DNA of 64,000 nucleotides from Polyangiaceae bacterium (GTDB lineage: Bacteria; Myxococcota_A; Polyangia; Polyangiales; Polyangiaceae), in contig JBNKUV010000104.1 in assembly GCA_050298815.1 (NCBI GenBank), positions 21,631 through 85,630 of the forward strand, in the 5' to 3' direction. The translations under genes and the position numbers were made by a program. The first letter of the stretch is position 1, and each line of letters opens with the position of its first letter. Positions 1 to 21,429 of this stretch are shown here, piece by piece. Below the pieces are notes generated by a model that saw nothing but the letters and a program-made list of their open reading frames with translations, made no database searches and was not told where the DNA came from.

Positions 1-2
1 TG

Positions 3-640: not shown

Positions 641-658
641 CGCGATCGGTCCGACACA

Positions 659-2013: not shown

Positions 2014-2817
2014 ATGAAGCTCGCGTTGCATGGAGCCACTGGGCGTATGGGGCGTGCGATTGCACGCCTGGCGACGGAGGCAGGAGACATTCAGATAGTT
2101 GGTGCCGTTTCGCATCCAGAGGACGAAAATCAGGGCAGGGATGTCGGCGAGCTTGCTGGAGTAGGCCCCCTGGGTGTCTTCGTGGGGCCCGATTTGGATT
2201 CGGCGCTGCTGGGAGCCGACGTGCTGATTGATTTTTCCCTGGCGCCAGCCTTTCCCGCCGTCGTCAAAGCCGCGCGCCAAGCCAAAGTGCCGCTCGTTGC
2301 CGGAACGACGGGGCTAACGCCGGAGATGATGGCCCTGGTGAACGAGGCTGGCAGCGAGATCCCCGTTCTCTGGGCGCGGAACATGAGCTTCGGCATCCAA
2401 GTGTTGGCCGTGCTCGTCAAAGACGCAGTGGCCCAACTCGGCAAGGACTTCGACGCGGAGATCGTCGAGGTTCATCATCGCCGCAAGGTCGACTCACCCA
2501 GCGGAACGGCGAAGCGCCTGATGGATGCGGTCGCCGAGGGGCGCAGTGACGCCAAGGCGCTCTACGAACGCCACGGCCAAGTTGGTGCCCGCACCGACGC
2601 CGAGGTAGGCGTCTTTGGCTTGCGTGGTGGTGACGTGATTGGCGATCACACGGTGCATCTGATGGGCCCGGGCGAGCGCATCGAACTCACCCACCGCGCT
2701 ACGAGTCGCGACGTGTTCGCGCACGGCGCGCTGCGAGCCGCTCGTTGGCTTGCGACACAGGCGCCGGGGAACTACTCGATCGAAGATGCCGTGCGCGTTG
2801 AAATGGGTCGCACCTAG
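2014..2817 (+). CDS. dapB: 4-hydroxy-tetrahydrodipicolinate reductase
   Basis: GATGRMGRAI NAD-binding loop and the EIVEVHHRRKVDSPSGTAKRL motif (ExHHxxKxDxPSGTA), typical of DapB; 267 aa. Confidence 0.9.
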   Translation: MKLALHGATGRMGRAIARLATEAGDIQIVGAVSHPEDENQGRDVGELAGVGPLGVFVGPDLDSALLGADVLIDFSLAPAFPAVVKAARQAKVPLVAGTTGLTPEMMALVNEAGSEIPVLWARNMSFGIQVLAVLVKDAVAQLGKDFDAEIVEVHHRRKVDSPSGTAKRLMDAVAEGRSDAKALYERHGQVGARTDAEVGVFGLRGGDVIGDHTVHLMGPGERIELTHRATSRDVFAHGALRAARWLATQAPGNYSIEDAVRVEMGRT

Positions 2818-2870
2818 CAGCCTCGAGGGCGGCGTCGGTTCCTACCCGCCTGCAATCGCAGCCCGACGTT

Positions 2871-3869
2871 TCAGGACTTGCTGTTCAAGAGCACCTCGTC
2901 CACATCCTCGTCGCCACCGTCGTCCTCGTCGTCGAGGTCGTCGTCAGATGGCATCGTGCGAACGTTCCAGTGCGCAGGGATGCGTTTCTGGAGACTGACG
3001 TAGACTCCGACGTAGCCGGCCAGCGCCGGAATGATGCTCAACAGCTGGCCTTCCGTCAGTAGAACGGAGCTCGGCAGGCTGTGCATTTGTTCGAGTCCTT
3101 TGGCAATGAACCCAGGGCAGACGGAGCTGTCGAGGCACACCGCCCACTCCTGGAAGTCCTTCCAGTACTCGACGATGAAGCGGCCAGTGAAGTAGAGCGC
3201 GAAGAAGAGCGAAATCATGACGCCCCGGGGGCGCTTCTCTTTGCCAAGCATGCGATCAGCGATGACCAGCGCAGCCATGACGGCCATGCCCATCACTGCT
3301 TCGTAGAGTTGGCTTGGGTGGCGAAGGGGCGCCTCCATGCCCAAGTGCACGTCCGGCGGGTGACGCAGAAACCGCACTCCCCAGCTTTGGTCTGTTTGCC
3401 GGCCAACGATCTCGGAATTGAAGAAGTTGCCGAACCGGATCAGGATCGACCCCAATGCCGCTGAGAAAGCGAACCGGTCGCAACCTTCGATGAAGGACTG
3501 GCGGCGCAGCTTCGTGAATACCCACATTCCGACGAGCAGTCCGATGGTGCCACCGTGACTCGCGAGTCCGCCCTCCCAGATGCGGAACAACCACATCGGA
3601 TCGGCCGCAAACTTGTCGAAGTCGTAGAAGAAGACATGCCCCAATCGACTGCCGCCGAGCACCGCAATGACGCCGTACATGACGAAGTCACTGGCGTCCT
3701 CTTCGGAGCCGCCGGCTCGGCGGATCTGCCAGTCGAGCAGTCGGTAGCCACCGAGGAAAACTCCAACGTAGAGCAGGCTGTAGTAGCGAATGCCATCGCC
3801 AGGCATCCACGACATCCAGTCGGGATACTTGAAGATAGTCGGGCTCAAGTCCCAGTTAAAAGTCGGCAC
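2871..3869 (-). CDS. lgt: Prolipoprotein diacylglyceryl transferase
   Basis: IWEGGLASHGG, RFGNFFNSEIVG and multiple TM segments. The track ORF (2871..4493) is over-extended into the thiC leader. A GTG at 3869 is preceded by AAGGAG with a 6-nt spacer. The C-terminal tail is acidic. Confidence 0.85.
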   Translation of the reverse strand: MPTFNWDLSPTIFKYPDWMSWMPGDGIRYYSLLYVGVFLGGYRLLDWQIRRAGGSEEDASDFVMYGVIAVLGGSRLGHVFFYDFDKFAADPMWLFRIWEGGLASHGGTIGLLVGMWVFTKLRRQSFIEGCDRFAFSAALGSILIRFGNFFNSEIVGRQTDQSWGVRFLRHPPDVHLGMEAPLRHPSQLYEAVMGMAVMAALVIADRMLGKEKRPRGVMISLFFALYFTGRFIVEYWKDFQEWAVCLDSSVCPGFIAKGLEQMHSLPSSVLLTEGQLLSIIPALAGYVGVYVSLQKRIPAHWNVRTMPSDDDLDDEDDGGDEDVDEVLLNSKS

Positions 3870-4065
3870 CCCGGGCTCCTTGTGAACGTGCGGTTGAGGG
3901 GAGCGAAAGGTCCAGCTGGCGCTGGCATCGCTTGGCGCGCCTATGTAGCAAAAAGCGCGCGCGATTGGGCTCAGCCGACCTGAATTTCCGCCATGTGTCC
4001 AGAGTCCGACTGAGACGTGCCGGGTTTCCGGCTGCCCGCCCGGAACCCTTGGCCCTACGCCAAGG

Positions 4066-5889
4066 GTGCGAAAGGAGAAGCCGAGTTTGCAGCTTGCGGG
4101 GCTTGCCGATTTCGACAACACCAGCCGAACTATGCCGACGATACCCCTCCGTGGCGCCCAGAACCCCTCGACTCTCGGCGAAGGAACGACACCCGGTTCC
4201 TTTGCCAATGTGGCACAGGTCGGCGGACCATTGACCTTCTCGTCACCCGACACGCCGGGAATGCCCGAACCCAGTGACAAGACAGCGTGGGACTTCATGC
4301 CCCGCGATTGGGTGCAGAGTCCCGAAGGGTGGAAGCCGCCACCAGGGTTCTCCGCAGTGACGCAGCTCGAATACGCGCGTCTCGGAGTGGTGACCGAGGA
4401 GATGGTGAAGGTCGCACAACGCGAGCGACACTTGACCGCAGACCAGATTCGCGTCGAGGTCGCTGCGGGGCGGATGATCATTCCCGCCAACAAGGTGCAC
4501 CTGCGTTACGAGCTCTCACCGATGTGCATCGGACGGGCTTCACTGACGAAGGTGAATGCCAACATGGGCGCTTCTCCCGTGTCTTCCGGAACGGAGGACG
4601 AAGTCGAGAAGCTCCGTTGGGCTGAGCGTTGGGGCGCAGATACGGTGATGGACCTGTCCACCGGCGGCGATCTGGATGCGTGTCGTGACGCGATAATTCG
4701 CGCCGCTAGAGTGCCAATTGGCACGGTGCCGATCTACAGCATGATCATCGGTCGTCGCATCGAAGACTTGACCGAGAAGGACATCATGGAAGGCCTTCTG
4801 CACCAAGCCAAGCAAGGTGTGGACTACTTCACGATCCACGCTGGCGTGCTGCGAGAGCACCTGCCGTTGGTCCAGCGGCGACTCATTGGCATCGTCAGCC
4901 GTGGCGGGTCGCTGCTGGCCAAGTGGATGCTCGTGCACAACAAGCAGAATCCGATGTACACGCACTTCGATGAGATATGCGACATCATGCGGGAGTATGA
5001 CGTCTCCTTCTCCCTCGGGGACGGTCTGCGTCCCGGTGGCCTCGCGGATGCCACGGACGATGCGCAGCTGGCCGAACTGGCGACCTTGGGTGAACTCACC
5101 GAGAAGGCGTGGCAGAAGGGCTGTCAGGTGATGGTGGAGGGCCCTGGTCACGTGCCCTTCGACCAGATCGAGTACAACATGAAGCTCCAGCGGCGAGTCT
5201 GCCATGGGGCTCCGTTCTACGTGTTGGGGCCCTTGGTAACAGATGTGTTTCCAGGCTACGATCACATGACCAGTGCGATTGGGGCCACTGCTGCGGGCTA
5301 CCATGGCGCGGCAATGCTCTGCTACGTCACCCCCAAGGAGCACCTTGGTCTGCCAAAGAAGGAAGACGTGAAACAGGGTTGCGTGGCCTACAAGATAGCT
5401 GCACACGCATCCGACGTCGCCTTGGGTATCCCAGGCTCGCGCGATTGGGATGACGATCTGACGAAGGCTCGCGCAGCGTTGAACTGGGAGAAGCACTTCG
5501 AACTGGCCTTCGACACCGACGTGGCGCGCGCGTACCACGATGAAGACTTGGACGTCGATACGGACTTCTGCGCCATGTGCGGGCACGATTGGTGTTCTGT
5601 GCGCATCTCGAAAGACATCCAAGAGTTCGCCTCAGGAAAAGCGGACGGTTTCGGCCGGGAACGAGTGATGCAGTCTGCCGCTCTGACTGAAGAACAGAGA
5701 GAGATTCTGCAGAAGCGGGGGGTGCTATCGCCAGAGGAGCTGCATCGCCTTGCAAGCAAGACGAAGCGCGCCGTGGTGAGTGATTCCCCCAAGGCCGGCT
5801 GCCATAGCGATCACGCAGGTCCTGATCAGGCGCGCCTGATTCAGAGCGAGCGCCTCAATCGGTCGAAGCGTTCCACGGCCGCTGAGTGA
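4066..5889 (+). CDS. thiC: Phosphomethylpyrimidine synthase
   Basis: [16 protein letters not shown]..., [20 protein letters not shown] and the C-terminal [14 protein letters not shown] Fe-S motif. The start is uncertain: in-frame ATGs at 4132 and 4261 are alternatives to 4066. Confidence 0.9.
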
Positions 5890-5923
5890 CGTTGGGCTGA
5901 GTGAGGTTGGGCTGAGTGAGCAC

Positions 5924-6781
5924 TCAGTTCTTATCCAACAAGCCGCGTAGCTCAGCGGGAGTGACACGAAACTCGCGCTGGCAATAGTCGCACGAAATCT
6001 CCAAGACTTCGCCGTCGTCGACCATGCTCTGAACCTCACTGCGGTTCAGGCTCGCCAGAGCGCCGAGCATGCTCGATCGGCTGCACCAACAACCGTAGTT
6101 GAACGTGCTGGAGTCCAGGGGGGTATAGGGCATTCCCCACAGCAGCTCTGCCATCAGCGACTCGGGCGAAAACTCTGGATCCCTGAGGAACTTTTCCACG
6201 CTCTGAAAGTCTTCGAGGCGCTCGGTCATGATGGCGAGCGGTGCACGGTCAGCGCCAGGTAGTAGCTGGATCACGTAGCCACCGGAGGCAGTCACGACGC
6301 CGGCGTCGTCGAACAGGGTTTCGACGACGATCATCGTCGTGATTTGTTCGGACTCCTGCATGTATGCCATGAGCCCATGAGAGACATCGGACCCATCCGG
6401 CACTCCCACGACCCCTTGTTGCACCCGGCCGTCATGCAAAGTGCGTACGACCTGCAACATGGCGTCGTCGAGCTCGAAGCCTGCTTGGGTGTGTTTGCCT
6501 CCGACCAGTCCACGAGTGTTGCCCGTGGGGTGGGAGTCTCCCAGCAGGTACCCCTTTTGGTTCTTGCGTTTGAGGATGCCTTGAACGCGAAGCGATGGCG
6601 ACATCGTTTCGCGAATCAGGACAGCGCCGGTCACGAGATCGCCGAGGTGCCGGGCCGTGGTGCCTCTGGCTTCTTGCGCGGCGAGTACACCGCGCACGGT
6701 CTCCGTTGCGCGGACTGTGACGACGCGGAAGGCTCCGTCGTCAGTCATGGCGCGGCAGATGATGTCGCTTGACGTCGTCAC
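5924..6781 (-). CDS. hslO: Hsp33 redox-regulated chaperone
   Basis: GGYVIQLLPG core and the C-terminal zinc centre GCWCS...SCDYCQREF (CxC...CxxC); 285 aa. Confidence 0.85.
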   Translation of the reverse strand: MTTSSDIICRAMTDDGAFRVVTVRATETVRGVLAAQEARGTTARHLGDLVTGAVLIRETMSPSLRVQGILKRKNQKGYLLGDSHPTGNTRGLVGGKHTQAGFELDDAMLQVVRTLHDGRVQQGVVGVPDGSDVSHGLMAYMQESEQITTMIVVETLFDDAGVVTASGGYVIQLLPGADRAPLAIMTERLEDFQSVEKFLRDPEFSPESLMAELLWGMPYTPLDSSTFNYGCWCSRSSMLGALASLNRSEVQSMVDDGEVLEISCDYCQREFRVTPAELRGLLDKN

Positions 6782-6785
6782 GTAC

Positions 6786-6950
6786 TCACTCCAGGTCTTC
6801 GTCGAGGATAGGGCGGGGTATGCGATAGGATTCGTTGAGCCAGTTCGCCAGGTCGCTCAGTTTGCAGCGCATTGAGCAGAACGGGCGGGCTTCGAAGTCT
6901 GCCGGAACTTCTTCGAGCACCTTCTTACACATCGGGCAAACGATACGCAT
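6786..6950 (-). CDS. yacG: DNA gyrase inhibitor YacG (zinc ribbon)
   Basis: MRIVCPMCKKVLEEVPADFEARPFCSMRCKLSDLANWLNESYRIP. The track ORF is over-extended; the internal ATG is at 6950. It lies 4 nt upstream of hslO. Confidence 0.8.
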   Translation of the reverse strand: MRIVCPMCKKVLEEVPADFEARPFCSMRCKLSDLANWLNESYRIPRPILDEDLE

Positions 6951-7136
6951 GACGATGGAGCCTACAGCGTCTTTTGTTGCCTCGCAGCAAGACGCTCCTT
7001 GCGAGCATGTCTCGCACCGGGCCCATGGCGGCCGCCCGTACTCCGGGGATACACTATAAGTGATTGAGATTATTGCGCAAGTCGCAGGTTTCTTAGGCTT
7101 TTGGTCCGGCTTGCGCCGTGTTAGCGTGCGCGCGCC

Positions 7137-9218
7137 ATGGCGCAAGACTTGCTCTTGGAGATAGGTGTCGAAGAACTTCCGGCCTCGTTCGTAGCGGGGG
7201 CGGTGCAGGCGTTGCCCAAGCTGCTATCAGGCGAACTTTCATCGCTGCGGCTGGAACACGGTGAGGTCAAGGCCGGAGGGACCCCGAGGCGTTTGATGGT
7301 CGTGGCCAAAGCCGTCGCGGAGCGACAGTCCGACTTGGACGAGGAGGTGATCGGCCCACCGGCGCGCGTGGCGTTCGACAAGGAGGGCAAGCCAACGCGA
7401 GCTGCGGAGAGTTTTGCCGAAAAGTCCGGCGTTGAGCTGTCTGCGCTGTACACCGTGGAGCAGCCGAAAGGGAGCTACGTCGCCGCTCGGCGCGTCGAAC
7501 CTGGCCAGCTCGCTGAAACGCTCGTGCCCCGAGCGCTCAAGAAGACGTGCGAAGGTATCTCCTTCAGAAAATCGATGCGTTGGTCGGACGGCGACACGAC
7601 GTTCGGTCGTCCTGTGCGATGGCTCTGTGCACTGTTCGGAGACTCCATCGTCAAGTTCGACTTTGCCGATCTCAGCTCATCGAACATCACCTACGGACAT
7701 CGCTTCCTGTCGCCCACCGCGATGGCGCTCGCGCATCCTGGTGACTACGAGGCGTTGCTCAAACGCGCGCACGTCATCGTCGACGTCGACCGGCGGCAAG
7801 CGCTGATGAATGAGCGTTTGAAAACGGCCGCGACCCAAGTCGGCGGCACGTTGATCGAAGACGCATTCCTCGTCGGCGAAAACGCTTCGTTGGTCGAAGA
7901 TCCCCAAGTCGTGGCAGGCTCCTTCGAAGAGCGCTTTCTGGAACTTCCCGAGCGCGTCATTCTGGACGTGGCTCGTGACCACCAGCGCTACTTCGGCGTG
8001 CGTGATGGTGACGGTAAGTTGATGCCGAGATACCTCGCTGTCGTCAACACCGCCCAGGTTCCCGAAAACGTGCGTCGGGGCAACGACCGGGTCATGCGAG
8101 CACGACTTGCTGACGCCAAGTTCTTCTTTGACGAGGATCGGAAGCGACCGCTCGAGGGGCGAGTCAAAGAGCTGGACGCAGTGCTATTTCAGAAACGGCT
8201 CGGTAGCGTTGGGGACAAGGTCAAGCGCATCACGGCATTGAGCAGGCGCATCGGCGACTTGCTCGGATTGTCGGACGCCGAGATCGACGTTGCCTGCAAG
8301 GCCGCACAACTGTGCAAATGCGATCTGGTGACGTTGATGGTTGGCGAGTTCCCTGAACTGCAGGGAGAGATGGGGCGTTCCTACGCGCTCTTGCAGGGAA
8401 TGCCCAGCGCCGTCGCGGACGCCATTGCCGAGCACTACAATCCGAAAGGTGCGAGTGACCCCACGGCGCCGAGCGCGCCAGGCGCTATCGTCGCCCTCGC
8501 CGACCGTTTGGACACCTTGGTCGGCTGCTGTGCCATCAACATCATGCCTTCGGGCAGTGCGGATCCGCTTGGCCTGCGCCGGGCGGCGATCGGACTGTTG
8601 CGCACTCTGGTTGATCACGAATGGTCGCTCGACCTGAAGGAGTTAATCCGTGCTGCTCATGGCGAACTCCGAGCCGTTCAGTTGGACCTGGATCTGGAGG
8701 AAACGCGTCACAAATTGAGCGGCTTCTTGCGTCATCGTCTGCGCGGGATCTTGTCCGAGGCACTGCCCCAGGATGCTGTGGATGCTTGTCTGGACGCTGA
8801 TGCGACCCGCCCCTACGATGCCGCGCAGCGCGCCCGTGCGTTGGCCGTATTGGATGCGGAACAGCGCGCGCAGGTGGGCGAGGTATTCAAACGGGCGGCG
8901 AACATTGCCAAAGAGGCGCCAGACGGAGAGCCCGTGGATCCTGCCGCGGTTTCGAGTGACGTGCACGAGTCGGAGAAGGCGCTCTATGCTGCCTATCAAG
9001 CGCTCGAGTCGTCCCTCAGACAAGGAGCGCGAGACTACATGCGGTCACTGTCAGCGATTTCGGAGTTCGCTCCGGTGCTCGGCAAGTTCTTCGACGACGT
9101 TTTCGTGATGACGGACGAGGCCGCGGTGCGAGAAAACCGTCTTCGCCAGATGGCAGCGATTCATCGGGTTTGCTCCGAGTTCGCAAGCTTCAACCTGCTC
9201 GCCAAACGCGCGTCCTAG
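7137..9218 (+). CDS. glyS: Glycine--tRNA ligase beta subunit
   Basis: N-terminus MAQDLLLEIGVEELPASFV plus length (693 aa) are typical of GlyS. Confidence 0.9.
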   Translation: MAQDLLLEIGVEELPASFVAGAVQALPKLLSGELSSLRLEHGEVKAGGTPRRLMVVAKAVAERQSDLDEEVIGPPARVAFDKEGKPTRAAESFAEKSGVELSALYTVEQPKGSYVAARRVEPGQLAETLVPRALKKTCEGISFRKSMRWSDGDTTFGRPVRWLCALFGDSIVKFDFADLSSSNITYGHRFLSPTAMALAHPGDYEALLKRAHVIVDVDRRQALMNERLKTAATQVGGTLIEDAFLVGENASLVEDPQVVAGSFEERFLELPERVILDVARDHQRYFGVRDGDGKLMPRYLAVVNTAQVPENVRRGNDRVMRARLADAKFFFDEDRKRPLEGRVKELDAVLFQKRLGSVGDKVKRITALSRRIGDLLGLSDAEIDVACKAAQLCKCDLVTLMVGEFPELQGEMGRSYALLQGMPSAVADAIAEHYNPKGASDPTAPSAPGAIVALADRLDTLVGCCAINIMPSGSADPLGLRRAAIGLLRTLVDHEWSLDLKELIRAAHGELRAVQLDLDLEETRHKLSGFLRHRLRGILSEALPQDAVDACLDADATRPYDAAQRARALAVLDAEQRAQVGEVFKRAANIAKEAPDGEPVDPAAVSSDVHESEKALYAAYQALESSLRQGARDYMRSLSAISEFAPVLGKFFDDVFVMTDEAAVRENRLRQMAAIHRVCSEFASFNLLAKRAS

Positions 9219-9366
9219 GACCCCCGAATGGGGGCTGTTTCGAGACACCACCCCACATCGCTCCGGCCGTCGGACTCCTCGTGGGTGGCGGGTTCGGATG
9301 GGTGCAACAGCCCGGCATCTAAATAGATTATTCGTTGGCGCGGACGTGCCGTAGCGGCAAGGGATC

Positions 9367-10464
9367 ATGATGAACCTCCGAGGGTTGGTTGCGGTCGCCG
9401 TGGGAGGGGCGGCGTCGTTGCTTTCGTTTGCCGCTGCCGCACTGCCGGGTACCCATCCCGATCCGGTTTCGACGTTCGATACACGAGGCTCCACCGTCGT
9501 TCTCGGGTACCGCCAAGGCGTTGTTTTCGACGGGACTTCGCGTGTGTTCAGCTACAACGCCAACTTCACGGCGACATCGGGTAACTTCAGTGCGCAGTTC
9601 GGAGCTCACTACATTCAGCTCAAGCTGTCGCCAGACAAGTTGATGATGCACGGTGCGGCGGCGAACGGAACTGCACTGTTTAGCTTGCCGTTGAGCGATC
9701 GGCATCCCAACGGCGTACCCATCACGGCGTTGAACATGTATCTGGGTGCCGTGCCCACCGCCGCAATCAGCGGACCAGAGAACTTCATGAGCGTACCTGT
9801 CAACGTGGGGGTTGGCGTGTCGATTTCTCCGGTGGGATGGTTCACCCTCACGCCGTGGTTCGAAGGTGCCCCGAGTATCAACTTGGACACCAAGATCTCG
9901 GATCTCGACTTCACGGTAGCGCTACGGGAAAATATCGAGGCTGCAGATCTCGAAGCCTCCAACGAAATCACCGTATTGACCCGGGAGGACATCAACCAGG
10001 TGCTGCAGGAAAGCGTGCAGCTCGAGTTCAGCACCCATCTTGCGCTGCGTGGTGGTCTATCCGGCGTCGTGCACCTCGGGTCGACGTGGGATTTGAACCT
10101 GTACGCGACCGCGACGAGCTTCGGCTCCACCTTCGACGGCCAGTTCATCGTGCAGGCGGGGCTCGGAGTCGGCTTTCATTGGGATGACGTCGTGCCCGAG
10201 GTGTTGCCGGCACCGCAGCGCCTGAAGAACGAAAGCTGTGAGGATATCGAGCAACGTTACATGGCGTGTCCCGGATTCAAGAAACAGCGGCAATCGAACA
10301 CAAGCGATCCGGTACCGGCGACACCACCCGCCGCATCGACGAGCCCACAGCCACCCGCACAGCTGCCCACTCAGCCGCCCACTGCAACACCTCCTGCAGA
10401 TCCTCCACCGCCGCCCCCTGGGCCTCCTGATGGTTCCAATGTTCCGTCCCCATCACCGTTCTAG
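9367..10464 (+). CDS. Secreted hypothetical protein, possibly beta-rich or outer-membrane, with a Pro-rich C-terminal tail
   Basis: Signal-peptide-like N-terminus (LVAVAVGGAASLLSFAAAA), alternating beta-like segments, and a C-terminal PATPPAASTSPQPPAQLPTQPPTATPPADPPPPPPGPP tail. Confidence 0.5.
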   Translation: MMNLRGLVAVAVGGAASLLSFAAAALPGTHPDPVSTFDTRGSTVVLGYRQGVVFDGTSRVFSYNANFTATSGNFSAQFGAHYIQLKLSPDKLMMHGAAANGTALFSLPLSDRHPNGVPITALNMYLGAVPTAAISGPENFMSVPVNVGVGVSISPVGWFTLTPWFEGAPSINLDTKISDLDFTVALRENIEAADLEASNEITVLTREDINQVLQESVQLEFSTHLALRGGLSGVVHLGSTWDLNLYATATSFGSTFDGQFIVQAGLGVGFHWDDVVPEVLPAPQRLKNESCEDIEQRYMACPGFKKQRQSNTSDPVPATPPAASTSPQPPAQLPTQPPTATPPADPPPPPPGPPDGSNVPSPSPF

Positions 10465-10521
10465 GGGACGAGCGTTTGACACTGCTCGGCTGACACTCGA
10501 AACTGCAACCGGAGGTAATAA

Positions 10522-11904
<1,383 letters not shown>

Positions 11905-12009
11905 GCCCAAGGCGATCAAGCGTGCTAGTGACGCCGCGTGCCTCGCGTCTGGACAGCACCCATCGCCAGCGACTCGCCGCGCTCTCAAAGAGTCGGACCG
12001 CTGTTGGGG

Positions 12010-13146
12010 ATGCACTACTTCGTGTTCTTTGCCGCGATGGGAACCTATTTCCCCTACATGCCGTCCTGGATGCAGGCGCGGGGGCTGCCTGGATACCAGA
12101 TAGGCATCATCACCTCCCTCTTGCCAGCCATGGCCGTCTTGTCACCGCCGCTGACGGGGATGCTGGCCGACGCCCTCGCTTTGAGGGGGGGCCTCATGCG
12201 GGTGTGCGCGGTCGCCTCAGCACTCTCGCTGGCAGCACTGGCCTGGTCCCTCTTGGAGCAAGCGACTCTCGGTTTCGGGTTCCTTTTCGCTTGTATCTTC
12301 GGGTTTACGTTCTTCCGCAGCCCGGTGTCGCAGCTGGCCGACGTGATGACGCTCGAACACGCGGGCAGCTACGGCCGGATCCGAGTGTGGGGCTCGATCG
12401 GCTTCATGGTGTCCGCGCCACTCGCTGGACGTTTCATCCCGCTCTCGCCGGCGTATGCCGTGCCTCTCGCGTGCACCATTGGATGTATCGTCCTTGCCGT
12501 CGTCAGCTTCTGGCTGCCGAAGCGCGCGAGTTTGGGACCTGCGCCAGCGTTGTCCGAGGCCAAGCGGTTACTAGGAGACTCGGGCTTTCGTTGGCTACTG
12601 GCTTCGGCGGCCGTAGGCCAGGCGTCCCACGCCGCCTATGACCTCTGCGTATCGATGCACCTTGGGAGCCTGGGTGCCTCGGGTACGGTGATTGGAAGTG
12701 CATGGGCGATTGCTACCGGAGGCGAAGTGGTGCTGATGGTCGTCTCTCCCTGGCTGTTCAAGCGCGCGTTGATCCCGTGGTGGTTGGTGCTCGCGTTGGG
12801 AGCGGCTGCGTGTCGTTGGGCTTTGCTCGCTTCGGTGAACGACGTAGGCACCATCTTGCTCAGCCAACCCCTCCACGGCCTCACCTTCGGCTTGCGTTGG
12901 GTGTGCTACCTCACGCTGGTTCGTTCGTTCGCGTCGCCGAACACGATGGCGACGGCTCAAGGTCTGTTCCTGGGTTCGTTCTCGGCGGGCGGAGTTCTGG
13001 GCATGCTCGTTTGGGGCGCAACGTACGATGAGCACCACGGCGCCGGCGTGTTCGCCGCAGCCACCGTCGTCGCGTTGCTAGCGACGGCACTGACTCTACC
13101 TGTTCTCCGCTCCCGTCAAGCGCGCGGCAGCACTGCCGTGGCCTAG
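12010..13146 (+). CDS. MFS transporter
   Basis: About 12 hydrophobic segments. MHYFVFFAAMGTYFPYMPSWMQARGL is a typical MFS N-terminus. The track ORF starts at a GTG at 11938; the ATG at 12010 is preferred. Confidence 0.75.
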   Translation: MHYFVFFAAMGTYFPYMPSWMQARGLPGYQIGIITSLLPAMAVLSPPLTGMLADALALRGGLMRVCAVASALSLAALAWSLLEQATLGFGFLFACIFGFTFFRSPVSQLADVMTLEHAGSYGRIRVWGSIGFMVSAPLAGRFIPLSPAYAVPLACTIGCIVLAVVSFWLPKRASLGPAPALSEAKRLLGDSGFRWLLASAAVGQASHAAYDLCVSMHLGSLGASGTVIGSAWAIATGGEVVLMVVSPWLFKRALIPWWLVLALGAAACRWALLASVNDVGTILLSQPLHGLTFGLRWVCYLTLVRSFASPNTMATAQGLFLGSFSAGGVLGMLVWGATYDEHHGAGVFAAATVVALLATALTLPVLRSRQARGSTAVA

Positions 13147-13374
13147 CGGTGTTGCTCGTCTGCTGGTCTGCTCGTGGTCTAGAGCTGCGTTGCGGTGTTG
13201 CGGGGGCGCGAGAGGGATTCGGCAACGCGCATTCCATCATTCCATCGGAGGAGGAGGCGCACGCGATGCGAATTCAGGCCCCACGGGTCCTGAATTCGAC
13301 ACCCGCGACCCATGACTCAGCCGCTCACGGAGAAGGCGCAGTACCGTCGCGTCCTGGCGGACGTGCGTGCCAGG

Positions 13375-14537
13375 CACGCTGGGAACGGTCAGACCGTTCT
13401 ACGCGGCAACGGTCAGACCGTTGTTCGGGTCGCTGTGGGAACGGTCCGACCGTTCCCTCGACAACGGTCAGACCGTTGTTTGTGTCGACAGCGTGTCATC
13501 GTACGCGGGGCGTCGTCGAGTGGGGAGAGTGCGGTAACTGACTGAAAGTAATTGGGAATGTGTGTGGAATGTCGCGCTGGGGTATCGTTGCTTCGCGAGG
13601 TCGTGGCTCCTCTCTTGGATCGGGGAACGGTCGGACCGTTGTCCCGAGCGGAGAGGGCGGTCGCGGCGTCCACGGCTCCCGAACCATCCGAATGCTGGCC
13701 ACGGCCGCCGCATCGACGACGCCAAAGGCGAAAAAGCATGTCGGCGGTGTCGAGACGCTGCTCGCGGAGGGGCCTGCCAACCCGCTGGGAACGGTCAGAC
13801 CGTTGTGCGCGGCAACGGTCTGACCGTTGTTCGGGTCGCTGTGGGAACTGTCCGACCGTTGTCTCGAGAACGGTCAGACCGTTGTTTGTGTTGACGGCGT
13901 GTCATCGTACGGCGGGCGTCATCGAGTGGGGAAACTAGTGGTAACTAGCTGAAACTAATTGTGAATGTGTGAAGAGCGTCGCGTCGCGGCATCGTTGCTT
14001 CGCGCTGTCGTGGCGTCTCCCTTGGGTCGGGGAACGGTCGGACCGTTCTTCCGAGTAGAGAGAGCGGTCGCGGCGTCCACGTCTCCGGAACCATCCGAAT
14101 GCTGGTCGCGGGCGCCGCATCGACGACGCCAAAGGCCAAAAGCATGTCGGCGGCGGCGAGAAGCTGCTCGCGGAGGTGCTTGCCAACCCGCTGGGAACGG
14201 TCAGACCGTTGTTTGTGTCGATTGCGTGTCATCGTACGGCGGGCGTCATCGAGTGGGGAGACTGCGGTAACTGACTGAAAGTAATTGGGAATATGTGAAA
14301 GATGTCGCACTGTGGCATCGTTGCTTCGCGAGGTCGTGGCGCCTCTGTTGGGTCGGGGAACGGTCGGACCGTTCCTCCGAGCAGAGAGGGTGGTCGCGGC
14401 GTCCACGTCTCCGGAACCATCCGAATGCTAGCCACGGCCGCCGCATCGAAGACGCCAAAGGCGACGAGCATGTCGGCGGCGGCGAGAAGCTGCTCGCGGA
14501 GGTGGCTGCCAACCCGCTGGGAACGGAGCTACGCATT
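13375..14537. repeat. Three tandem ~406-bp units carrying 12 copies of the dyad AACGGTC-N-GACCGTT
   Basis: Dyad centres are at 13391, 13415, 13447, 13470, 13632 / 13797, 13821, 13853, 13876, 14040 / 14203, 14366. The period is 406-408 bp. The third unit lacks about 80 bp. Stops occur in all frames. Confidence 0.9.
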
Positions 14538-14960
14538 CTTTCCAGCAAAGAGTTCGACGCCAGATCGCTACTCTGTGTGGTCTTCGCCGGTGACCGCCGT
14601 CTGCTCGACCGACTCGGGCACCGAGACCTACAACCCATCGAGAGTCGAATTCGGCGCCGCCTCTTACTTGAAGGGGCTCCCAGAGACGAAATGCTCGCCT
14701 GTCTCGACCACCCGCTGATGCAGCTGGCAACCCCGATCTCTCATCGCCACCGACGCGAAGGTCGCCATCGCCGAGCACTCCGCAGCCAACTACCGCAGCA
14801 GATGACCCACTGCGACGAGCTCTTCGCCACCATGCTCGACCGTGACGCCACCATCATCGACGCGGACCTCTTCTTCGATCACTACAAGCCAAAGCGCGCC
14901 AAGCGCCGAAAGAAACTAACCCTCAATTCGCGCGATCAGGCGACCATCAAAATTGCGTGA
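14440..14960 (+). pseudogene. ExeA/TniB-like transposition AAA ATPase relic (3' part, frameshifted, no Walker A)
   Basis: RIEDAK...ELRILSSKEFDARSLLCVVFAGDRRLLDRL...RIRRRLLLEG is in one frame. AGNPDL and LIATDAKVAIAEHSAANYR are in the two other frames. The reading then returns to the first frame (MTHCDELFATML...). That implies at least 3 frameshifts. Confidence 0.6.
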
Positions 14961-14974
14961 TCGCGCTCAAGGAA

Positions 14975-15610: not shown

Positions 15611-16080
15611 TCGGTGGACGCGGCCCAGCGCACAAGAGCCTTTTTAGAAGAAGAGAGTTCGTTGAGTGAACTATAGAAATAGTCCTGCCAGCTGATCTCC
15701 GGAAGACCGGCAAACACCATCAAGTTGAGAGGGTAGTCGGTGCTGTCCGAGCACCGCCGAAGGTCATCCCGAAAGAGGAACGTCGGCTTCTGAAGGGCAA
15801 TCGCAACGCCAAGCTCAACCATAACTCCTTCATCGGGAGGTGTACCATTGACAACGGCGAAGATCCCGTCGCATTCCTTGACGCCCTGAAGGTTTAGTTG
15901 CGCAACGGCGTAGGCCCACCCTGGTTCCCGAGCAACGAGGTGCTTAGTTCGCTCGAAGGGTTCCCACACCTCGAGTCCAAGAGCTTCGAGGGCTTCCTTC
16001 AGTCTCGGCAGGACCAGCGCGCTCGCTTGCTCTGAGAAACCATAGCTGTTCGCGAGATAGAGCTTCTTCTTTTCTGTCAC
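15607..16080 (-). CDS. Nucleoside 2-deoxyribosyltransferase-like (NDT/Rcl superfamily) protein
   Basis: KLYLANSYGF ... CDGIFAVVNGTPPDEGVMVELGVAIALQKPTFLF matches the NDT fold pattern, including the DxG..E.G catalytic-Glu segment. GTG start preceded by GGGAGG with a 4-nt spacer. Confidence 0.7.
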   Translation of the reverse strand: MTEKKKLYLANSYGFSEQASALVLPRLKEALEALGLEVWEPFERTKHLVAREPGWAYAVAQLNLQGVKECDGIFAVVNGTPPDEGVMVELGVAIALQKPTFLFRDDLRRCSDSTDYPLNLMVFAGLPEISWQDYFYSSLNELSSSKKALVRWAASTE

Positions 16081-16210
16081 GAAACCTCCCGGAGTGCAGG
16101 GTGAGCCACTGTACGCCCAGGTGTCAAGAATGAGGCGGGAACCAGAGGCGAATGTCTAGAAGAGCTAGACAAACGTGCGTAGTAGCGAACGAGGGTTGCC
16201 TGACCGTGAT

Positions 16211-16522
16211 GTCCGCCCAAACGAGGCCGTAGAAAATCCCACTTTGGCGTGAACGTCAACCTGCCCCCCGCCTCTCGGGCCCCCGCGCTCGATTTTCGTC
16301 GCCCTCGTGCCCGAGCCCTCCGCTGGGGCCACCCCGGTTCACCCGGGGCTGACGCGCTCACTGACGGTGCACTCTGGCGATCTTCTCGATGTTGTGAACG
16401 ATGGTGAAGAGCTGCCACTGGGCGTTCACCTTGAGTTGTCCACGCACCGTAAAGCGGCGCATGCCCTTGTTTTGGATGTTGCCGAAGACGTGTTCGACAG
16501 TGCCGATGCGTTTGCTGTAGAT
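16211..16522 (-). mobile_element. IS1182/IS5-superfamily right-end relic A (last ~55 transposase codons plus terminal region)
   Basis: Aligns by eye with 17978-18290 and 20091-20420. Encodes IYSKRIGTVEHVFGNIQNKGMRRFTVRGQLKVNAQWQLFTIVHNIEKIA. Confidence 0.75.
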
Positions 16523-17203: not shown

Positions 17204-17845
17204 TTAGTACTGCCGAGTAGAGCCACCGCGCCCTCCAGCACCACCGCCACCGCCGTGGCTGTGGTTGACGGGGGGAGTAGCCGGCGGCGCGGGGAGCGCC
17301 GCAGCGTTGGGGGTCGTCGCAGCTTGGGGTTCTGGGATGTCAGGTGGCGCTGGCAACTGAGTCACGACTTGAAAGGGCACGGCGAGGTCGCCGCGAAGCA
17401 CATTGATTAGGCGCTTTCTTAGCTCGTGCTGATCCCGCTCTAGATCACTGTGCGCGCTGGGCAAGTACGTTTGATTCTTGAGATGGACCTTGTCAAAGTC
17501 GTAGCTTAGGGCTGATGCCATACGACCCAGCAATTCGATGAACAGGTCATCTGTCCTTGTGTGCCACGCTTGAGCGGAGCCGCTCGATGGCGTGTTCAAG
17601 TGGTCGAGGTACTCTTTCCAGGCAAGGGTTACAGGTCGGTCCTCGTAGAACTCGACGTCAATGAGGTTTAGAGCTTCGACATGTGGCGCGCTTAGCTTCT
17701 GAGCGCGAGTCGCCATCAGGGTTTTGAAGACGGCAAGCCGGCGATCACGGCGAACCTTACGATCATCAAGCCGTCGAGCAACCTGCACGGCGAGTATCGG
17801 GCCGAGCAACACTGCCATGATCATCACGGCGTCGGAAATGGTCAT
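17204..17845 (-). CDS. Single-pass membrane-anchored hypothetical protein with Pro/Gly-rich tail
   Basis: N-terminal TM (AVMIMAVLLGPILAVQVA) followed by a basic stretch. The soluble domain reads FKTLMATRAQKLSAPHVEALNLIDVEF... From memory it resembles DUF6680-type proteins; this was not checked. Confidence 0.5.
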   Translation of the reverse strand: MTISDAVMIMAVLLGPILAVQVARRLDDRKVRRDRRLAVFKTLMATRAQKLSAPHVEALNLIDVEFYEDRPVTLAWKEYLDHLNTPSSGSAQAWHTRTDDLFIELLGRMASALSYDFDKVHLKNQTYLPSAHSDLERDQHELRKRLINVLRGDLAVPFQVVTQLPAPPDIPEPQAATTPNAAALPAPPATPPVNHSHGGGGGAGGRGGSTRQY

Positions 17846-17977
17846 GTGGAAAGCGAATCAGATTTGCGTTGGAAGCGCAACTGTCCCGCCTATTGCCGCG
17901 ATAACATATCGACCTTGCTGGGGCAGGGAGCTTCGGAACCCCTCGTCGTCGCAGCCTGCCGCGAGCTGAATGGTGAA

Positions 17978-18977
17978 GTCTGCCCAACGAGGCCGTAGAA
18001 AGACCCACTTTGGCGAAAACGTCAACCTCCCCCCCGCCCCCTCGGGCCCCGCGCTCGGTTTTCTTCGCCCCGTGGCCCCAGCTCCTTCGGATGGGCCACC
18101 CCGGTTCACCCGGGGCTGACGCCCTCACTCACGGTGCACTCTTGGCAATCTTCTCGATGTTGTGAACGATGGTGAAGAGCTGCCACTGGGCGTTCACCTT
18201 GAGTGGTCCACGCAGTGTGAAGCGGCGCATGCCCCTGCTTTGGATGCTGCCGAAGACGGGTTCGACAGTGCCGATGCGTTTACTGTAGATGGCGCGGCCA
18301 ACGGGCGTGTCGAACTTCCTGCGCATGCGCTGGACGGCTGCATTCGAGGTGGCCTTTGTCGCGGGCGCTGGTCCGACTCGCTCCTTGACGACCGTGAGCT
18401 GGCGCTGCTTGGTAAGTTCGGGATGGCGTAAGCATTGGCTCCGCAGCGGGCAACCTCGGCATGCGGTGATGGGTGCTTTGAAGTGAGCGACGCGGTAACC
18501 ATTGAACAGCATGTCTGTGCCGCTCTTGTAGAGCTTGTGGCCAGCGGGGCAGAAGCAGGTTTCGTTCTGTTCATCGTAGACGAAGTCCTCGAGCGTGAAC
18601 TGCTTCTTGGGTAGCTTCGGCCGTGCCTCGCGTTCGCGACGACGCTTCAACGCGCGCTCCTTGAGGCTTCGCTGCTTGTGGCGGGTGGTGTCGGCAAATG
18701 CCGGATCGCGGCGGCGGAAGTCGCGATCGGCGATGTAGGCGTCGGCGCCGGTCTTCTCGACGGCGGTGAGGGCGACCTTGCTGTGGAAGCCGCTGTCAGC
18801 GGTCAATTTGGCTTTGTCGAAAAGATCGACATCGGGGTTGCCTGTCCGCCGAGGCGTGGCAGCCGCTGCCGCATGGGGCTGCAACGTCTGCGTTTGGACG
18901 CAAATAGCCACGGTCCGTGCGAGGTTTGTAGAATCCACCATTGACGGGCCCGGATGCGCGGCGGAGAGTTTGCGCAT
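17978..18977 (-). mobile_element. IS1182/IS5-superfamily relic B (3' ~850 bp of the transposase gene plus right end; 5' part missing)
   Basis: ORF 18129..18977: LTADSGFHSK...GADAYIADRD (DDE region), Cys-rich CPAGHKLY...CRGCPLRSQC, and C-terminal MRRFTLRGPLKVNAQWQLFTIVHNIEKIAK. At 282 aa it is too short for a full transposase. Confidence 0.8.
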
Positions 18978-20037
18978 GCGTATAGCAGTCCTTGGCAGTT
19001 GGCGGCAGGAGGATGCACGGCAGTGGAAGTTGCGCGAAGACGGTGAACAATTCGCCCAAGCGTGTCGTCGAATCGGGCAGGAGCTGATCAGACGGGGTCA
19101 CAGCCTCATCGTAGGCACAGACTCTCGACACACGGCTGACGGTAACGCGGCCCGAGGTGCGTACGACGAACTGGCAGAACAACGGACCGATCGACCAAGA
19201 ATAACAGTAGTCAGGCAAGATGATTCCAGTACATATCTTGCATTCAACGACCAGCGCCGCGCCCACGGTGGCATTTTCGTTGATCACATCGTGCACGGAT
19301 CAAGTTGGGCGGCAGTGAAACTAGTACAGACTCAGCTCGCTGACGCTGTTTTGCTAGTTGGCGGGGCAGAAAAGACGGAGCAGGCTGGATTGACCGCGGC
19401 GGTAGCCAGGAAGCCAATCGCATGCATCGGCTCTTTTGGGGGAGCAGCGTCGAAGCTTAACCAAACGTTCCAGCATTCACCGGCGACATGGGGCTACGAG
19501 CCTTGGGAAACGCGCCGAGTCGGTGAACTACAAGAGCCATTCAGCGAGATAGTACTCAAGTCAGCTCTCGAGCAGGCGTGGATCGAAGGCGCACCGAAAC
19601 TCATGATCATTCACGGCCGCAGTCCCGACCGGAACCTGCTCAAGAGGTACCTCGCTGGCGCTGCAGGAGCAGTGATTGTGCTAGCCGACGAGTTTGATCC
19701 CACGCAACCGATTCCGATAAAACTGGAGCGGTTCGCTTCATCGGTGGATGGGGCGATCGCTTTGCTTACTCCGGACGATGTTGGCGGATTGGCCGACGAT
19801 CCGAGCAATACAGCAAGTCGAGCAAGGGAAAACGTGTGGGTTGAAGTCGGCTGGTTTTGGGGTCGGCGAGGTCGGTCGCATCTGCTGCTTTTGAGAAAGG
19901 GTGACGTGACCATTCCTTCAGACCTTCTCGGCGTAGAAGCCTACAAGTACACCAAGAGTCCCGTTGAGTGCCGCGAAATCATCAACAAGTTCATTTCTCG
20001 GCTACGGGCGGCAAGCGAAGCGACCAATGTTGGATGA
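18976..20037 (+). CDS. SLOG/LOG-like Rossmann domain fused to a TIR-like (Cap12/PycTIR-type, PF10137-like) domain
   Basis: N-terminus: MRIAVLGSW..., LLVGGAEKTEQAG (compare PGGxGTxxE), FGGAAS. C-terminus: KLMIIHGRSPD...AIALLTPDDVG...RARENVWVEVGWFWGRRGRSHLLLLRKGDVTIPSDLLGVEAYKY, the pattern of TIR-like predicted nucleotide-binding proteins. ATG at 18976 with GGAGAG 8 nt upstream. Confidence 0.7.
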   Translation: MRIAVLGSWRQEDARQWKLREDGEQFAQACRRIGQELIRRGHSLIVGTDSRHTADGNAARGAYDELAEQRTDRPRITVVRQDDSSTYLAFNDQRRAHGGIFVDHIVHGSSWAAVKLVQTQLADAVLLVGGAEKTEQAGLTAAVARKPIACIGSFGGAASKLNQTFQHSPATWGYEPWETRRVGELQEPFSEIVLKSALEQAWIEGAPKLMIIHGRSPDRNLLKRYLAGAAGAVIVLADEFDPTQPIPIKLERFASSVDGAIALLTPDDVGGLADDPSNTASRARENVWVEVGWFWGRRGRSHLLLLRKGDVTIPSDLLGVEAYKYTKSPVECREIINKFISRLRAASEATNVG

Positions 20038-20090
20038 ATCGTGGTGACCGAACTGGGGCGTCAAAGGGAGCCGGATTTCGACAAGCTTTC

Positions 20091-20420
20091 GTCTGCCGAA
20101 CGAGGCCGAAGTGAAACCAAATTTGGCGTGAACGTCAACCTGCCCCCCGCCCTCTCGAGCCCCGCGCTCGGTTTTCTTAGACCCGAGCCCCATGGGCTGC
20201 CCCTCGGCTGGGGCCCCCCCGGTGCGCCCCGGGGGGGCGCCCTCACCGACTGTGCACTCCGGCGATCTTCTCGATGTTGTGAACGATGGTGAAGAGCTGC
20301 CACTGGGCGTTGACCTTGAGTTGCCCACGCGTCGTAAAGCGAGTAAAGCGGCGCATGTCCTTGTTTTGGATGTTGCCGGAGACGGGTTCGACAGCGCCCA
20401 TTCGCTTGGCATAGAGCGCT
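20091..20420 (-). mobile_element. IS1182/IS5-superfamily right-end relic C
   Basis: Encodes ALYAKRMGAVEPVSGNIQNKDMRRF(TRF)TTRGQLKVNAQWQLFTIVHNIEKIA with a 9-bp internal duplication. Same orientation as A and B, and nearly the same truncation point as relic A. Confidence 0.7.
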
Positions 20421-20424
20421 GTCG

Positions 20425-21429
20425 TCAGTGACCTTCACGTGTTTCAGAAGATCCCGCCCGCCTGCGAAACAGCAGGAACATCGCAAGTGCGTGCATGGCC
20501 AACGACGTGGGAGGGGGTTCAGGGCTTAGGGAACAGGCGCAGCCGCGGGTGGTGGGTGCGGGGAAGAGCTTGGACGGGCCAGGCGTGGGATGTTCGAGGC
20601 GCAGGGATTGAGTCCAGCCAGAGAAGTTCCCAGCGATGTCGTAGGAGCCGGCTCTAACGGTGATGGGTCCACGCTCGAAGTCCCAGTTTCGGCTGCAGCC
20701 GGAGGAGCCCACGACGATGTCGTCATCTGCGAAAACATCGGAGACCAGAAGAGGCCTCTCTGGCAGCATCGTTGGTCCGTGTGTGAGCGCGAGGGTGACT
20801 GCGACACCGTCATGGGCGAACGGGATTAGGAAGTGGTCACCGCGAAGGCACATCTCGCTGCTGCCGAGATTGTCGAAGATGGCCTCGGGCTGCCCCAACG
20901 TCGGCAGTCTTGGAGGCTGCTCAAGCCGAGAAGAAGTAGCGGTGACAACGATCACGTTGCTGTCGTCAGAGCCGCTGATCGCTGGACGCAACGCTACCGT
21001 TCCGGTGGGCAAGTCTTGGTGAGGAGACAGGATGAAGTAGCGGACGCGCCCCGAGGGTCTGCTGCGGAGTAGCAGGACATCGAAGGCCACACCGTTTCCA
21101 TTGGAGTTGGTGAGGACTAGGCTGTGAGTGAGCTCCTCGCTTGTGGGAGTAAGCTTTCCAAACCCGAACCTGAGGTTGGCGCCACGTTCGGGCTGCGACG
21201 CGATGAGGTGGTTACCGGCTATCCAGGCGGCGGTTGGAGCTGGCAGCCAGAACTTGGCATTGGCCGGTACGACGTCGCCGGTTTTCGGAGCGACGCGGTC
21301 GGGTAGAACCGCACACGAACAGGCGTCGGCCTCGTTTGACAGGCAGCCGAGGACCAGGAGAACGCCCAACGACATGAGCAAACGGCGCGGGACTGAAAGG
21401 TCGTGGCTTGCGGTCGGGCAGCGCAACAT
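20425..21429 (-). CDS. Secreted protein with MYXO-CTERM-like sorting tail
   Basis: Signal peptide (LLMSLGVLLVLGCLS). The C-terminal GCACSLSPEPPPTSLAMHALAMFLLFRRR resembles the MYXO-CTERM motif (GCxC, hydrophobic stretch, RRR). Confidence 0.6.
   Translation of the reverse strand: MLRCPTASHDLSVPRRLLMSLGVLLVLGCLSNEADACSCAVLPDRVAPKTGDVVPANAKFWLPAPTAAWIAGNHLIASQPERGANLRFGFGKLTPTSEELTHSLVLTNSNGNGVAFDVLLLRSRPSGRVRYFILSPHQDLPTGTVALRPAISGSDDSNVIVVTATSSRLEQPPRLPTLGQPEAIFDNLGSSEMCLRGDHFLIPFAHDGVAVTLALTHGPTMLPERPLLVSDVFADDDIVVGSSGCSRNWDFERGPITVRAGSYDIAGNFSGWTQSLRLEHPTPGPSKLFPAPTTRGCACSLSPEPPPTSLAMHALAMFLLFRRRAGSSETREGH

Follow-up and report, generated by a model that had tools for sequence, protein, structure and literature searches.

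A tandem array of conserved dyads at the edge of a genomic island in a Polyangiaceae bacterium, possibly the relic of an array-plus-gene cassette

In a stretch of 64,000 nucleotides from contig JBNKUV010000104.1 of a Polyangiaceae bacterium (hereafter the window), the sequence shortly after an MFS_1_like transporter gene turns into a tandem array packed with the dyad AACGGTC-N-GACCGTT, which raises the question of what such a conspicuous repeat represents on a chromosome. The answer that we prefer, and to which we give about an even chance of being right, is that the array is a rearranged and amplified relic of a cassette made up of a site array and a gene, and that its dyads still bind a dimeric, sequence-specific factor.

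The array spans window positions 13377–14525 and comprises 2.8 tandem units of 406, 406, and 326 bp. TRF reported periods of 406 bp (13377–14212) and 326 bp (13868–14526), and the units were 87–90% identical in self-BLAST and in a three-way alignment (divergence of 10–15%). An exact search with the core retrieved 11 perfect copies (AACGGTCNGACCGTT) against 0.00 expected in dinucleotide shuffles, and the twelfth core, at 13846–13860, carries a single mismatch; the ~406-bp, dyad-packed units described in the initial annotation were thus confirmed. No further copy with two or fewer mismatches was found elsewhere in the whole window. The dyad centres and the 24/32/23-bp spacing given in that annotation also stood, apart from the fifth centre, which lies at 13633 and not at 13632, and so did the extended dyad GGGAACGGTCCGACCGTTCCC at 13437–13457. 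The third unit lacks 79–80 bp, and the edges of this deletion fall inside dyads 1 and 4, which fits the proposed recombination between these two dyads. No open reading frame (ORF) spans the array, in agreement with the view that it does not encode a repeat protein. The parts of the array are the following, where D1–D5 denote the five dyads of a unit.

13354–13376, no strand: stretch preceding the units, which in part matches the 3' end of the repeat unit; self-BLAST extends the match between units 1 and 2 to 13354.
13377–13782, plus strand: repeat unit 1 (406 bp), with D1–D5 at 13384–13398, 13408–13422, 13440–13454, 13463–13477, and 13626–13640.
13783–14188, plus strand: repeat unit 2 (406 bp), with dyads at 13790–13804, 13814–13828, 13846–13860 (one mismatch), 13869–13883, and 14033–14047.
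14189–14514, plus strand: repeat unit 3 (326 bp), with a D1/D4 hybrid dyad at 14196–14210 and D5 at 14359–14373; D1–D3 were lost by the dyad-to-dyad deletion.
14515–14525, plus strand: start of unit 4 (CGCTGGGAACG), broken within its first dyad; homology to an insertion sequence (IS) begins at 14526.

Unit 4 is truncated at 14525/14526 by a 5'-truncated IS remnant, and the array may originally have extended further.

The three window units and the copy in a conspecific metagenome-assembled genome (MAG; L084) were aligned column by column. Among the dyad columns 1 of 70 was variable, versus 50 of 199 non-dyad columns (Fisher p = 1.5e-6) and 12 of the 40 columns lying within 4 nt of a dyad (p = 1.5e-5). 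Conservation therefore ends abruptly at the borders of the dyads, contrary to what homogenisation of whole tracts would give, and all five dyads are perfect in L084 although the module has diverged by 7.5%; the column counts show that the dyad sites are under selection. The initial annotation held that a 1-nt centre precludes stable single-stranded DNA hairpins, which is wrong, since the dyads fold with a 3-nt loop at −4.4 to −9.3 kcal/mol. However, when 90 dyads from all loci were pooled, 43 of the 47 variant pair positions had changed on one side (38 breaking the pair outright and 5 leaving a G-T pair) and only 2 were compensated, which indicates that the sequence of the dyads is kept rather than their pairing. 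This pattern supports the earlier suggestion that the dyads are double-strand recognition sites, to which a dimeric protein would bind.

To place the motif in a wider context, one genome per species (185,579 species) was scanned for two cores located 7–37 nt apart. Among the 27 loci obtained, 10 were true arrays of the full 15-mer, which came from five other species-level MAGs, four of them labelled Polyangiaceae. A first class (L002, L011, L014, L016, L017, L021, L025, and L027) has a strict 42–43-bp period with 4–10 full dyads per array, where gaps of two or three periods mark decayed dyads, and an A/T tract lies midway between the dyads (AT content of 0.57–0.64; 19 of 38 spacers contain an A/T run of 4 bp or more, vs. 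~8% in the background). The second class, formed by the window, L009, and L015, has a 24/32/24-bp cluster plus a distal dyad. The arrays are flanked by unrelated chromosomal genes, convergent pairs included. Three arrays of one MAG (L014, L021, and L027) are paralogues that have the whole array in common, with unrelated flanks and edges that are sharp at the first and last dyad, and L009 and L015, again from a single MAG, are likewise paralogous modules at unrelated loci. Directly beside the cluster in the latter two lies a ~92% identical 63-bp segment (AGCCTGCCTAACGC..TGTTCCCGTCCGCAGGCG..CAACCCAGCCCG; L009 5590–5652 and L015 1613–1675), which was not found elsewhere, and the spacer preceding the window module has no homology to this flank. 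A metagenome scan gave 44 matches, most of which were unrelated microsatellites or local duplications, while L034 and L043 were genuine cassettes. A literature search on the motif string returned only primer noise.

In three species (L014, L016, and L025), the dyad array is followed by an orthologous gene of ~300 aa, and in L014 and L016 this is followed in turn by a gene for an FtsK/HerA-like ATPase, which weakly matches DNA or substrate translocases of the CedB/CedD, TraD, VirB4, and EccC types. In intact cassettes the array lies 57–383 bp upstream of the family gene (in L002, the gene starts 178 bp from the array). A ~28%-identical family member in L034 and L043 has a six-unit 43-bp array of GACGGTC-N-GACCGTC just upstream. 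The distant or paralogous family genes that were fetched (L090 twice, L091, L092, and L093) lack the AACGGTC-N-GACCGTT dyad; each has its own 41–43-bp tandem array, located in the 360–850-bp upstream gap and built from a different but related two-box unit. Box 1 is GAAsGGTC-N-GrGCTT (half-site RR(S)GGTC) in these arrays and the symmetric AACGGTC-N-GACCGTT in the window lineage, whereas box 2 is an A/T-centred palindrome, for example CAACGAAACCGTTG or CGAATTCG; some arrays consist of two inverted blocks. The A/T tract midway between the dyads of the 42–43-bp class is what is left of box 2. An unbiased autocorrelation test over the 620 bp preceding each available family gene gave a top lag of 41–43 bp, above the 99% null, in 9 independent loci, with L094 borderline. 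Different array motifs coexist within one MAG (L025 and L092); therefore, array and gene co-vary, and the array motif follows the gene lineage.

Two further features of the leaders were observed. Between the dyad array and the family gene of L016, a second, different array with a ~43-bp period (GATCACGCACCGCGGCAAC, ~7 copies) occupies 5080–5400, so that two types of array can follow one another in a single leader. The leaders of L025, L090, and L092 have in common a purine-rich element, GGCGA(C/A)-A7-(C)GATCGG, ~130–170 bp upstream of the start codons and between array and gene, which could be a subfamily-specific promoter or leader motif.

A profile search for the protein family recovered 4,679 cluster representatives with E ≤ 0.001, of which 1,556 reached E ≤ 1e-30. 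Those with names are called 'hypothetical protein', and the sole one with a taxonomy is from Myxococcales. The family protein had no match in Pfam, NCBIfam, or PADLOC, no meaningful match in PHROGs, no sequence match in PDB, and no match among plasmid or phage proteins. Its AlphaFold model (pLDDT 77.6, pTM 0.70) is all-alpha, with eleven predicted helices and a disordered acidic tail that ends in GLPGxSPF, and a fold search with this model gave no match in PDB or BFVD. The C-terminal GLPGxSPF is conserved in proteins P0144–P0178 after a disordered acidic/proline-rich linker, and, speculatively, its combination with an adjacent FtsK/HerA-like ATPase could mark a secretion or coupling signal. 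In many cases the family gene is the first gene of a conflict-type operon, which encodes, for instance, an FtsK/HerA-like ATPase or PT-HINT toxins. L090 contains two tandem cassettes (4879–7424 and 9181–11769), in each of which a PT-HINT polymorphic-toxin gene follows the family gene, with Imm21 next in the second, and other family members adjoin GmrSD, HipA, or ParE genes, which suggests that the family belongs to conflict systems.

The same family left traces inside the window array, at the end of each unit.

13689–13778, minus strand: family-gene fragment in the tail of unit 1, ~aa 114–143, frameshifted; two frames read ..GRPLREQRL.. and ..FAFGVVDAAAVASIR..; position taken from the homology to units 2 and 3.
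14095–14184, minus strand: family-gene fragment in the tail of unit 2, positions 114–143 of the family hidden Markov model (HMM), hmmsearch independent E-value (i-E) 0.02, translation VGKHLREQLLAAADMLLAFGVVDAAPATSIR.
14421–14507, minus strand: family-gene fragment in the tail of unit 3, HMM positions 115–143, i-E 6.3e-5; 67% identity to P0171 over 27 aa in tblastn.

The fragment region covers the most conserved motif of the family, RPLRExLL...FGxxDxxxVAxIR. Since the family HMM matches the unit tails, each 406-bp unit is composed of a five-dyad module and a ~90-bp antisense fragment of the family gene. Compared with the cassettes described above, the window copy has the box 1 dyad, but neither the 41–43-bp period with box 2 nor an intact downstream gene; it is a relic or orphan and not an intact cassette member.

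In the scenario that we prefer, the family gene would have been destroyed in the window, leaving one ~90-bp antisense fragment per unit, and the five-dyad module with its fragment would have been amplified through unequal exchange at the dyads, after which an illegitimate junction with the IS remnant would have cut the array. Every breakpoint examined falls in a dyad, be it at the junction between units, in the deletion of unit 3, at the IS junction, or at the edge of a paralogous array; therefore, the dyads are also the preferred breakpoints. Selection still maintains the twelve dyads, which are most probably occupied by a dimeric, sequence-specific factor that binds double-stranded DNA. In intact cassettes, this factor would bind the phased sites cooperatively and thereby regulate the downstream gene, the array serving as an operator or activator-site array, while the orphan window copy, on the border of core genome and island, would bind it for titration or in an architectural role, with a multi-operator sponge as a possible form.

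As for the class of the binder, the core offers a resemblance rather than an identification. The template for operators of the FadR subfamily is GTM-N0-1-KAC, with 3 nt between GT and AC (PMC4494728), as in the fadL site of Escherichia coli FadR, AGCTGGTCCGACCTATA (PMC4259882). The core GGTC-N-GACC fits this template, with GT-N3-AC and half-sites that are very close together, and AACG-GTC-N-GAC-CGTT likewise fits the GntR palindrome template NyGT-Nx-ACNy, so that a winged-helix protein of FadR/GntR-type geometry would be a candidate binder by analogy. In contrast to these arrays, however, FadR-type regulators normally use one or two sites near their own or their target operon, and the outer positions are AACG as opposed to the usual T-K. 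A crude tblastn search with GntR, FadR, and HutC helix-turn-helix (HTH) consensus sequences found none in the window or in the array loci, and L013, a lead for a GntR gene near an array, was discarded because its repeat is a coding peptide repeat in a phage-type replication protein. Another comparison is with PexR of Myxococcus xanthus, a bacterial enhancer-binding protein (bEBP) that oligomerises on three to six tandem interrupted palindromes CACCG-n6-CGGTG (PMC12754779). Both systems have several tandem interrupted palindromes (5-N5/6-5) in myxobacterial intergenic DNA, where dimers would assemble into higher oligomers, but the arrays described here have no conserved downstream sigma-54 promoter, up to 10–12 sites instead of 3–6, no adjacent EBP gene, and a strict 41–43-bp period.

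Several observations weigh against the relic-cassette reading. The 24/32/23 spacing of the window dyads is unlike the canonical 41–43 bp, and the gene fragment is antisense and internal. Several dyad arrays are true orphans, some of them between convergent genes (L017 and L021), which would be odd for simple operators. Near no array was a GntR-type or other obvious binder candidate found. The family proteins are acidic (pI ~5) with no recognisable DNA-binding domain or fold and no PDB match, and hence the family protein is a poor candidate for the direct binder and was rejected as a recognisable one. No sigma-70 or sigma-54 promoter is conserved in the window unit or the leaders: no sigma-70 promoter was found in the window unit, no match to the sigma-54 consensus GG-N10-GC of at least 9/12 was found in 11 leaders, and the window unit, as read from its sequence, has only TGGCxC-N5-TTGG upstream of D5. 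Arrays were checked at the nearest relatives only, in a family of 4,679 clusters. Finally, every sequence used comes from a short-read MAG assembly. The independent Logan assembly L073 stops at window position 13445, within the dyad cluster, and the conspecific MAGs L085 and L084 (98.4% identical over coding DNA) stop 463 and 920 bp past the MFS gene, respectively, inside or just beyond the module; as three independent short-read assemblies break at the array, the copy number of the unit is not confirmable from them.

Among the alternatives, that of a chromosomal centromere-like or DNA-translocase loading array is unlikely but survives best. The phased dyads would in that case nucleate a higher-order nucleoprotein complex, in the manner of F sopC with SopB or of the Streptomyces clt repeats with TraB; this complex would be handled by the FtsK/HerA-like ATPase whose gene lies beside the cognate dyad arrays, and orphan arrays would provide extra loading or anchoring sites. 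The 42–43-bp period with a 7-N-7 dyad comes close to sopC, arrays are few per genome, the motif occurs solely in arrays and never singly, and the weak translocase matches of the ATPase point in the same direction. Type III partition cassettes have the order array, small protein, NTPase, and L014 and L016 show a like order. On the other hand, no ParA-, ParB-, ParM-, or TubZ-type gene is present, the ATPase is limited to the dyad-type subgroup while other family genes have arrays without an NTPase, the loci lie on chromosomes, with no plasmid or phage record matched by the unit or by the family protein, the adaptor candidate is acidic without a DNA-binding fold, and the window spacing is not 43 bp. 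Specifically, no partition NTPase or centromere-binding gene (ParA/ParB, ParM/ParR, or TubZ/TubR) was found in the window island, and the cognate arrays have the ATPase and the orphan protein.

The sopC locus of F consists of 12 × 43 bp with a 16-bp inverted repeat in each (PMC3177203), and is the closest architectural analogue, given the ~43-bp tandem period, the short perfect inverted repeat in each unit, the sites on one helical face, and the restriction of the motif to the array (PMC3177203). The present arrays differ from it in being chromosomal, in lacking ParA/ParB-family genes, in having two boxes per unit, and in occurring several times per genome, orphans included; the window differs further in its 24/32/23 spacing within a 406-bp unit, and the associated gene encodes an acidic orphan protein and not ParB. 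The Streptomyces clt repeats, which are 8 bp long, non-palindromic, and irregularly spaced, are recognised by the FtsK-like translocase TraB, and E. coli datA, with DnaA boxes plus IHF, is a locus for DnaA titration; by analogy, clt (translocase loading) and datA (titration) may be comparable to the possible roles of orphan arrays.

The narrower proposal of a plasmid or phage centromere or an iteron origin, raised in the initial annotation, was not borne out. The locus is chromosomal, lying between housekeeping genes and a variable island in which no par, rep, integrase, or conjugation gene was seen; no viral contig carried dyad pairs, and the repeat unit had no DNA match in plasmid or phage collections. 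Thus, of the hallmarks of a partition centromere, the regular tandem array is present (42–43-bp arrays; 12 window dyads), whereas the plasmid or phage location is not. An iteron origin was rejected because the sites are palindromic, there is no rep gene, and AT-richer sequence is limited to a short patch between D4 and D5, and a CRISPR array because the period is 41–43 or 24/32 bp, paralogous arrays have homologous 'spacers', and no cas genes were seen.

A bolder form of the loading idea, which we consider improbable, would take the arrays, the orphan all-alpha GLPGxSPF protein, and the FtsK/HerA-like ATPase together as a new chromosomal DNA-handling system, perhaps sopC-like, in which a protein other than ParB would be the adaptor and a translocase the motor. 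Orphan arrays would then anchor or load it and mark island boundaries, and several thousand unannotated myxobacterial genes would each be under their own co-evolving 41–43-bp iteron array.

It is also improbable that the window array is a functionless relic, that is, decaying cassette debris in a recombination-prone island, whose dyads would seem conserved only because other arrays have repeatedly converted short tracts of it or because its copies are younger than they look. The cognate gene survives only as fragments, the IS remnant and other IS debris surround the array, the sister species lacks the island, and conspecific assemblies differ just downstream of D5, all of which such a relic would explain. 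Conversion, however, would homogenise the flanks too, whereas variable columns abut the invariant dyads (12/40 within 4 nt vs. 1/70), and L084 keeps its five perfect dyads at 7.5% module divergence. In addition, the divergence between units (10–15%) exceeds the intergenic divergence between strains (6–7.5%); therefore, the copies are old.

Slightly less probable is a selfish palindromic repeat, similar to repetitive extragenic palindromes (REPs) and bacterial interspersed mosaic elements (BIMEs) or to miniature inverted-repeat transposable elements (MITEs), in which the dyad would be the hairpin substrate of a trans-acting transposase and the arrays would have spread as mobile units. The dyads can form hairpins with 6–9-bp stems, the paralogous arrays (L014, L021, and L027) and modules (L009 and L015) lie in unrelated surroundings, arrays occur in all intergenic contexts, including between convergent genes, and the breakpoints lie in dyads. 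With REP/BIME and BOX elements the arrays share short GC-rich intergenic palindromes that are sometimes clustered, hairpin-capable, and found as paralogues at unrelated loci. In contrast to those elements, the arrays are low-copy (at most 3 array-bearing contigs per MAG in the paired-core scan; not one dyad standing alone across 240 kb of Polyangiaceae DNA), the GTAG/CGTC tag by which REPs are defined (PMC3733652) was absent within 8 nt of 70 of 71 dyads, and pairing is not preserved by compensatory changes. Neither a RAYT nor any other transposase is regularly found close to the arrays, the motif is absent from the adjacent IS, the position of the array upstream of the same gene is kept across species, and the motif co-varies with the lineage of that one gene family. 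The initial annotation was therefore right in not taking the motif for a generic, scattered REP-like repeat.

An element acting at the RNA level, in which the arrays would be transcribed leaders whose periodic hairpins control the stability or translation of the downstream gene, is very unlikely. The arrays do sit between the upstream gene and the start codon of the family gene, hairpins are thermodynamically possible, and L091 and L092 contain long inverted blocks; however, covariation is absent, no Rfam family was matched, the dyads are perfectly symmetric with a free central base, and arrays occur in both orientations and also as orphans between convergent genes.

That the array is a set of end-binding sites of a neighbouring IS or transposon, or an assembly artefact, was rejected as extremely improbable even though a transposon ATPase pseudogene directly adjoins it and short-read assemblies break there, because eight intact copies of the element (L076–L083) contain no dyad with two or fewer mismatches and their homology to the window begins only at 14526, while units that differ by 10–15% are beyond what artefactual duplication can make. 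The array is consequently older than the junction and does not consist of the sites of that transposase, in line with the preference stated in the initial annotation.

The surroundings of the array include the following features.

12010–13146, plus strand: MFS_1_like transporter gene (Pfam match; called as a gene in L072), the last core gene before the array.
13147–34602, no strand: variable island of ~21.5 kb, missing from the sister species, with the array at its left edge.
14526–14969, plus strand: 3'-terminal IS-like remnant with the last 130 ATPase codons, frameshifted, and the right terminal repeat; no dyads; 81–87% nucleotide identity to L076–L083.

In the sister species, the MFS gene directly adjoins a convergent aminotransferase gene, and synteny with the window resumes at ~34.6–35.5 kb; thus, the array forms the left edge of a ~21.5-kb insertion. 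The window was also placed in contig JBNKWN010000021.1 (162.5 kb) of NCBI assembly GCA_050299775.1. This island is of the defence type, with genes for a CAP12/Pycsar-like TIR protein, a patatin, NTP_transf_6 (nucleotidyltransferase), Nuc_deoxyrib_tr, DUF4145, DUF6680, AAA_14/DUF4143, and HTH_3+DUF4423, together with IS fragments. Conspecific assemblies have the five-dyad module at the same place, and L084 departs from the window ~20 bp past the fifth dyad. A tRNA-linked integrative element was rejected, as the window has no tRNA and no integrase was seen in the island; the L009 array lies near a tRNA-Ser gene, and the 63-bp flank that it shares is not derived from the tRNA. About 120 bp past the MFS stop codon, the inverted repeat GAATTCAGG-N10-CCTGAATTC (13263–13291) is kept in L084 and may be a terminator-like hairpin without a T-run.

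The ORF that leaves the array is the decayed C-terminal part of an ExeA-like AAA_22 ATPase. Its intact relatives are 78–85% identical and reside in a three-gene IS-like element of ~3.1–3.3 kb, to which the window is homologous from 14526 (ATPase codon ~146) to the right terminal repeat at 14969. The three genes are a 208-aa ORF without a Pfam match, a 472–480-aa rve transposase, and the 275-aa AAA_22 ExeA-like ATPase, and the element is found as stand-alone ~3.1–3.6-kb contigs in many metagenomes. Further into the island, related fragments with similar ORF translations (..LTFTPKWDFLRPR.. and similar) at ~16077–16418, 17766–18128, and 20002–20486 flank a DDE_Tnp_1_6 transposase gene (18129–18977) and look like IS1182/IS5-type end debris. 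A 21-bp × 5.9 tandem repeat containing CAGTGGTCACTG at 43672–43795 was rejected as a second dyad-type array, since it codes for AVTTDSD peptide repeats that form part of a secreted, Cys-rich protein of 574 aa, whose gene lies on the minus strand; it is unrelated to the dyad arrays.

Phased arrays of protein-binding sites as such are already known as centromeres, iterons, and operator or activator arrays, but the present array family appears to be undescribed. For annotation purposes, the conspicuous repeat of the window should be labelled neither as a plasmid centromere nor as the end of a transposon. Identification of the binder would offer an entry point to the control of a large set of uncharacterised myxobacterial genes and would explain why bare site arrays are kept at the borders of islands.

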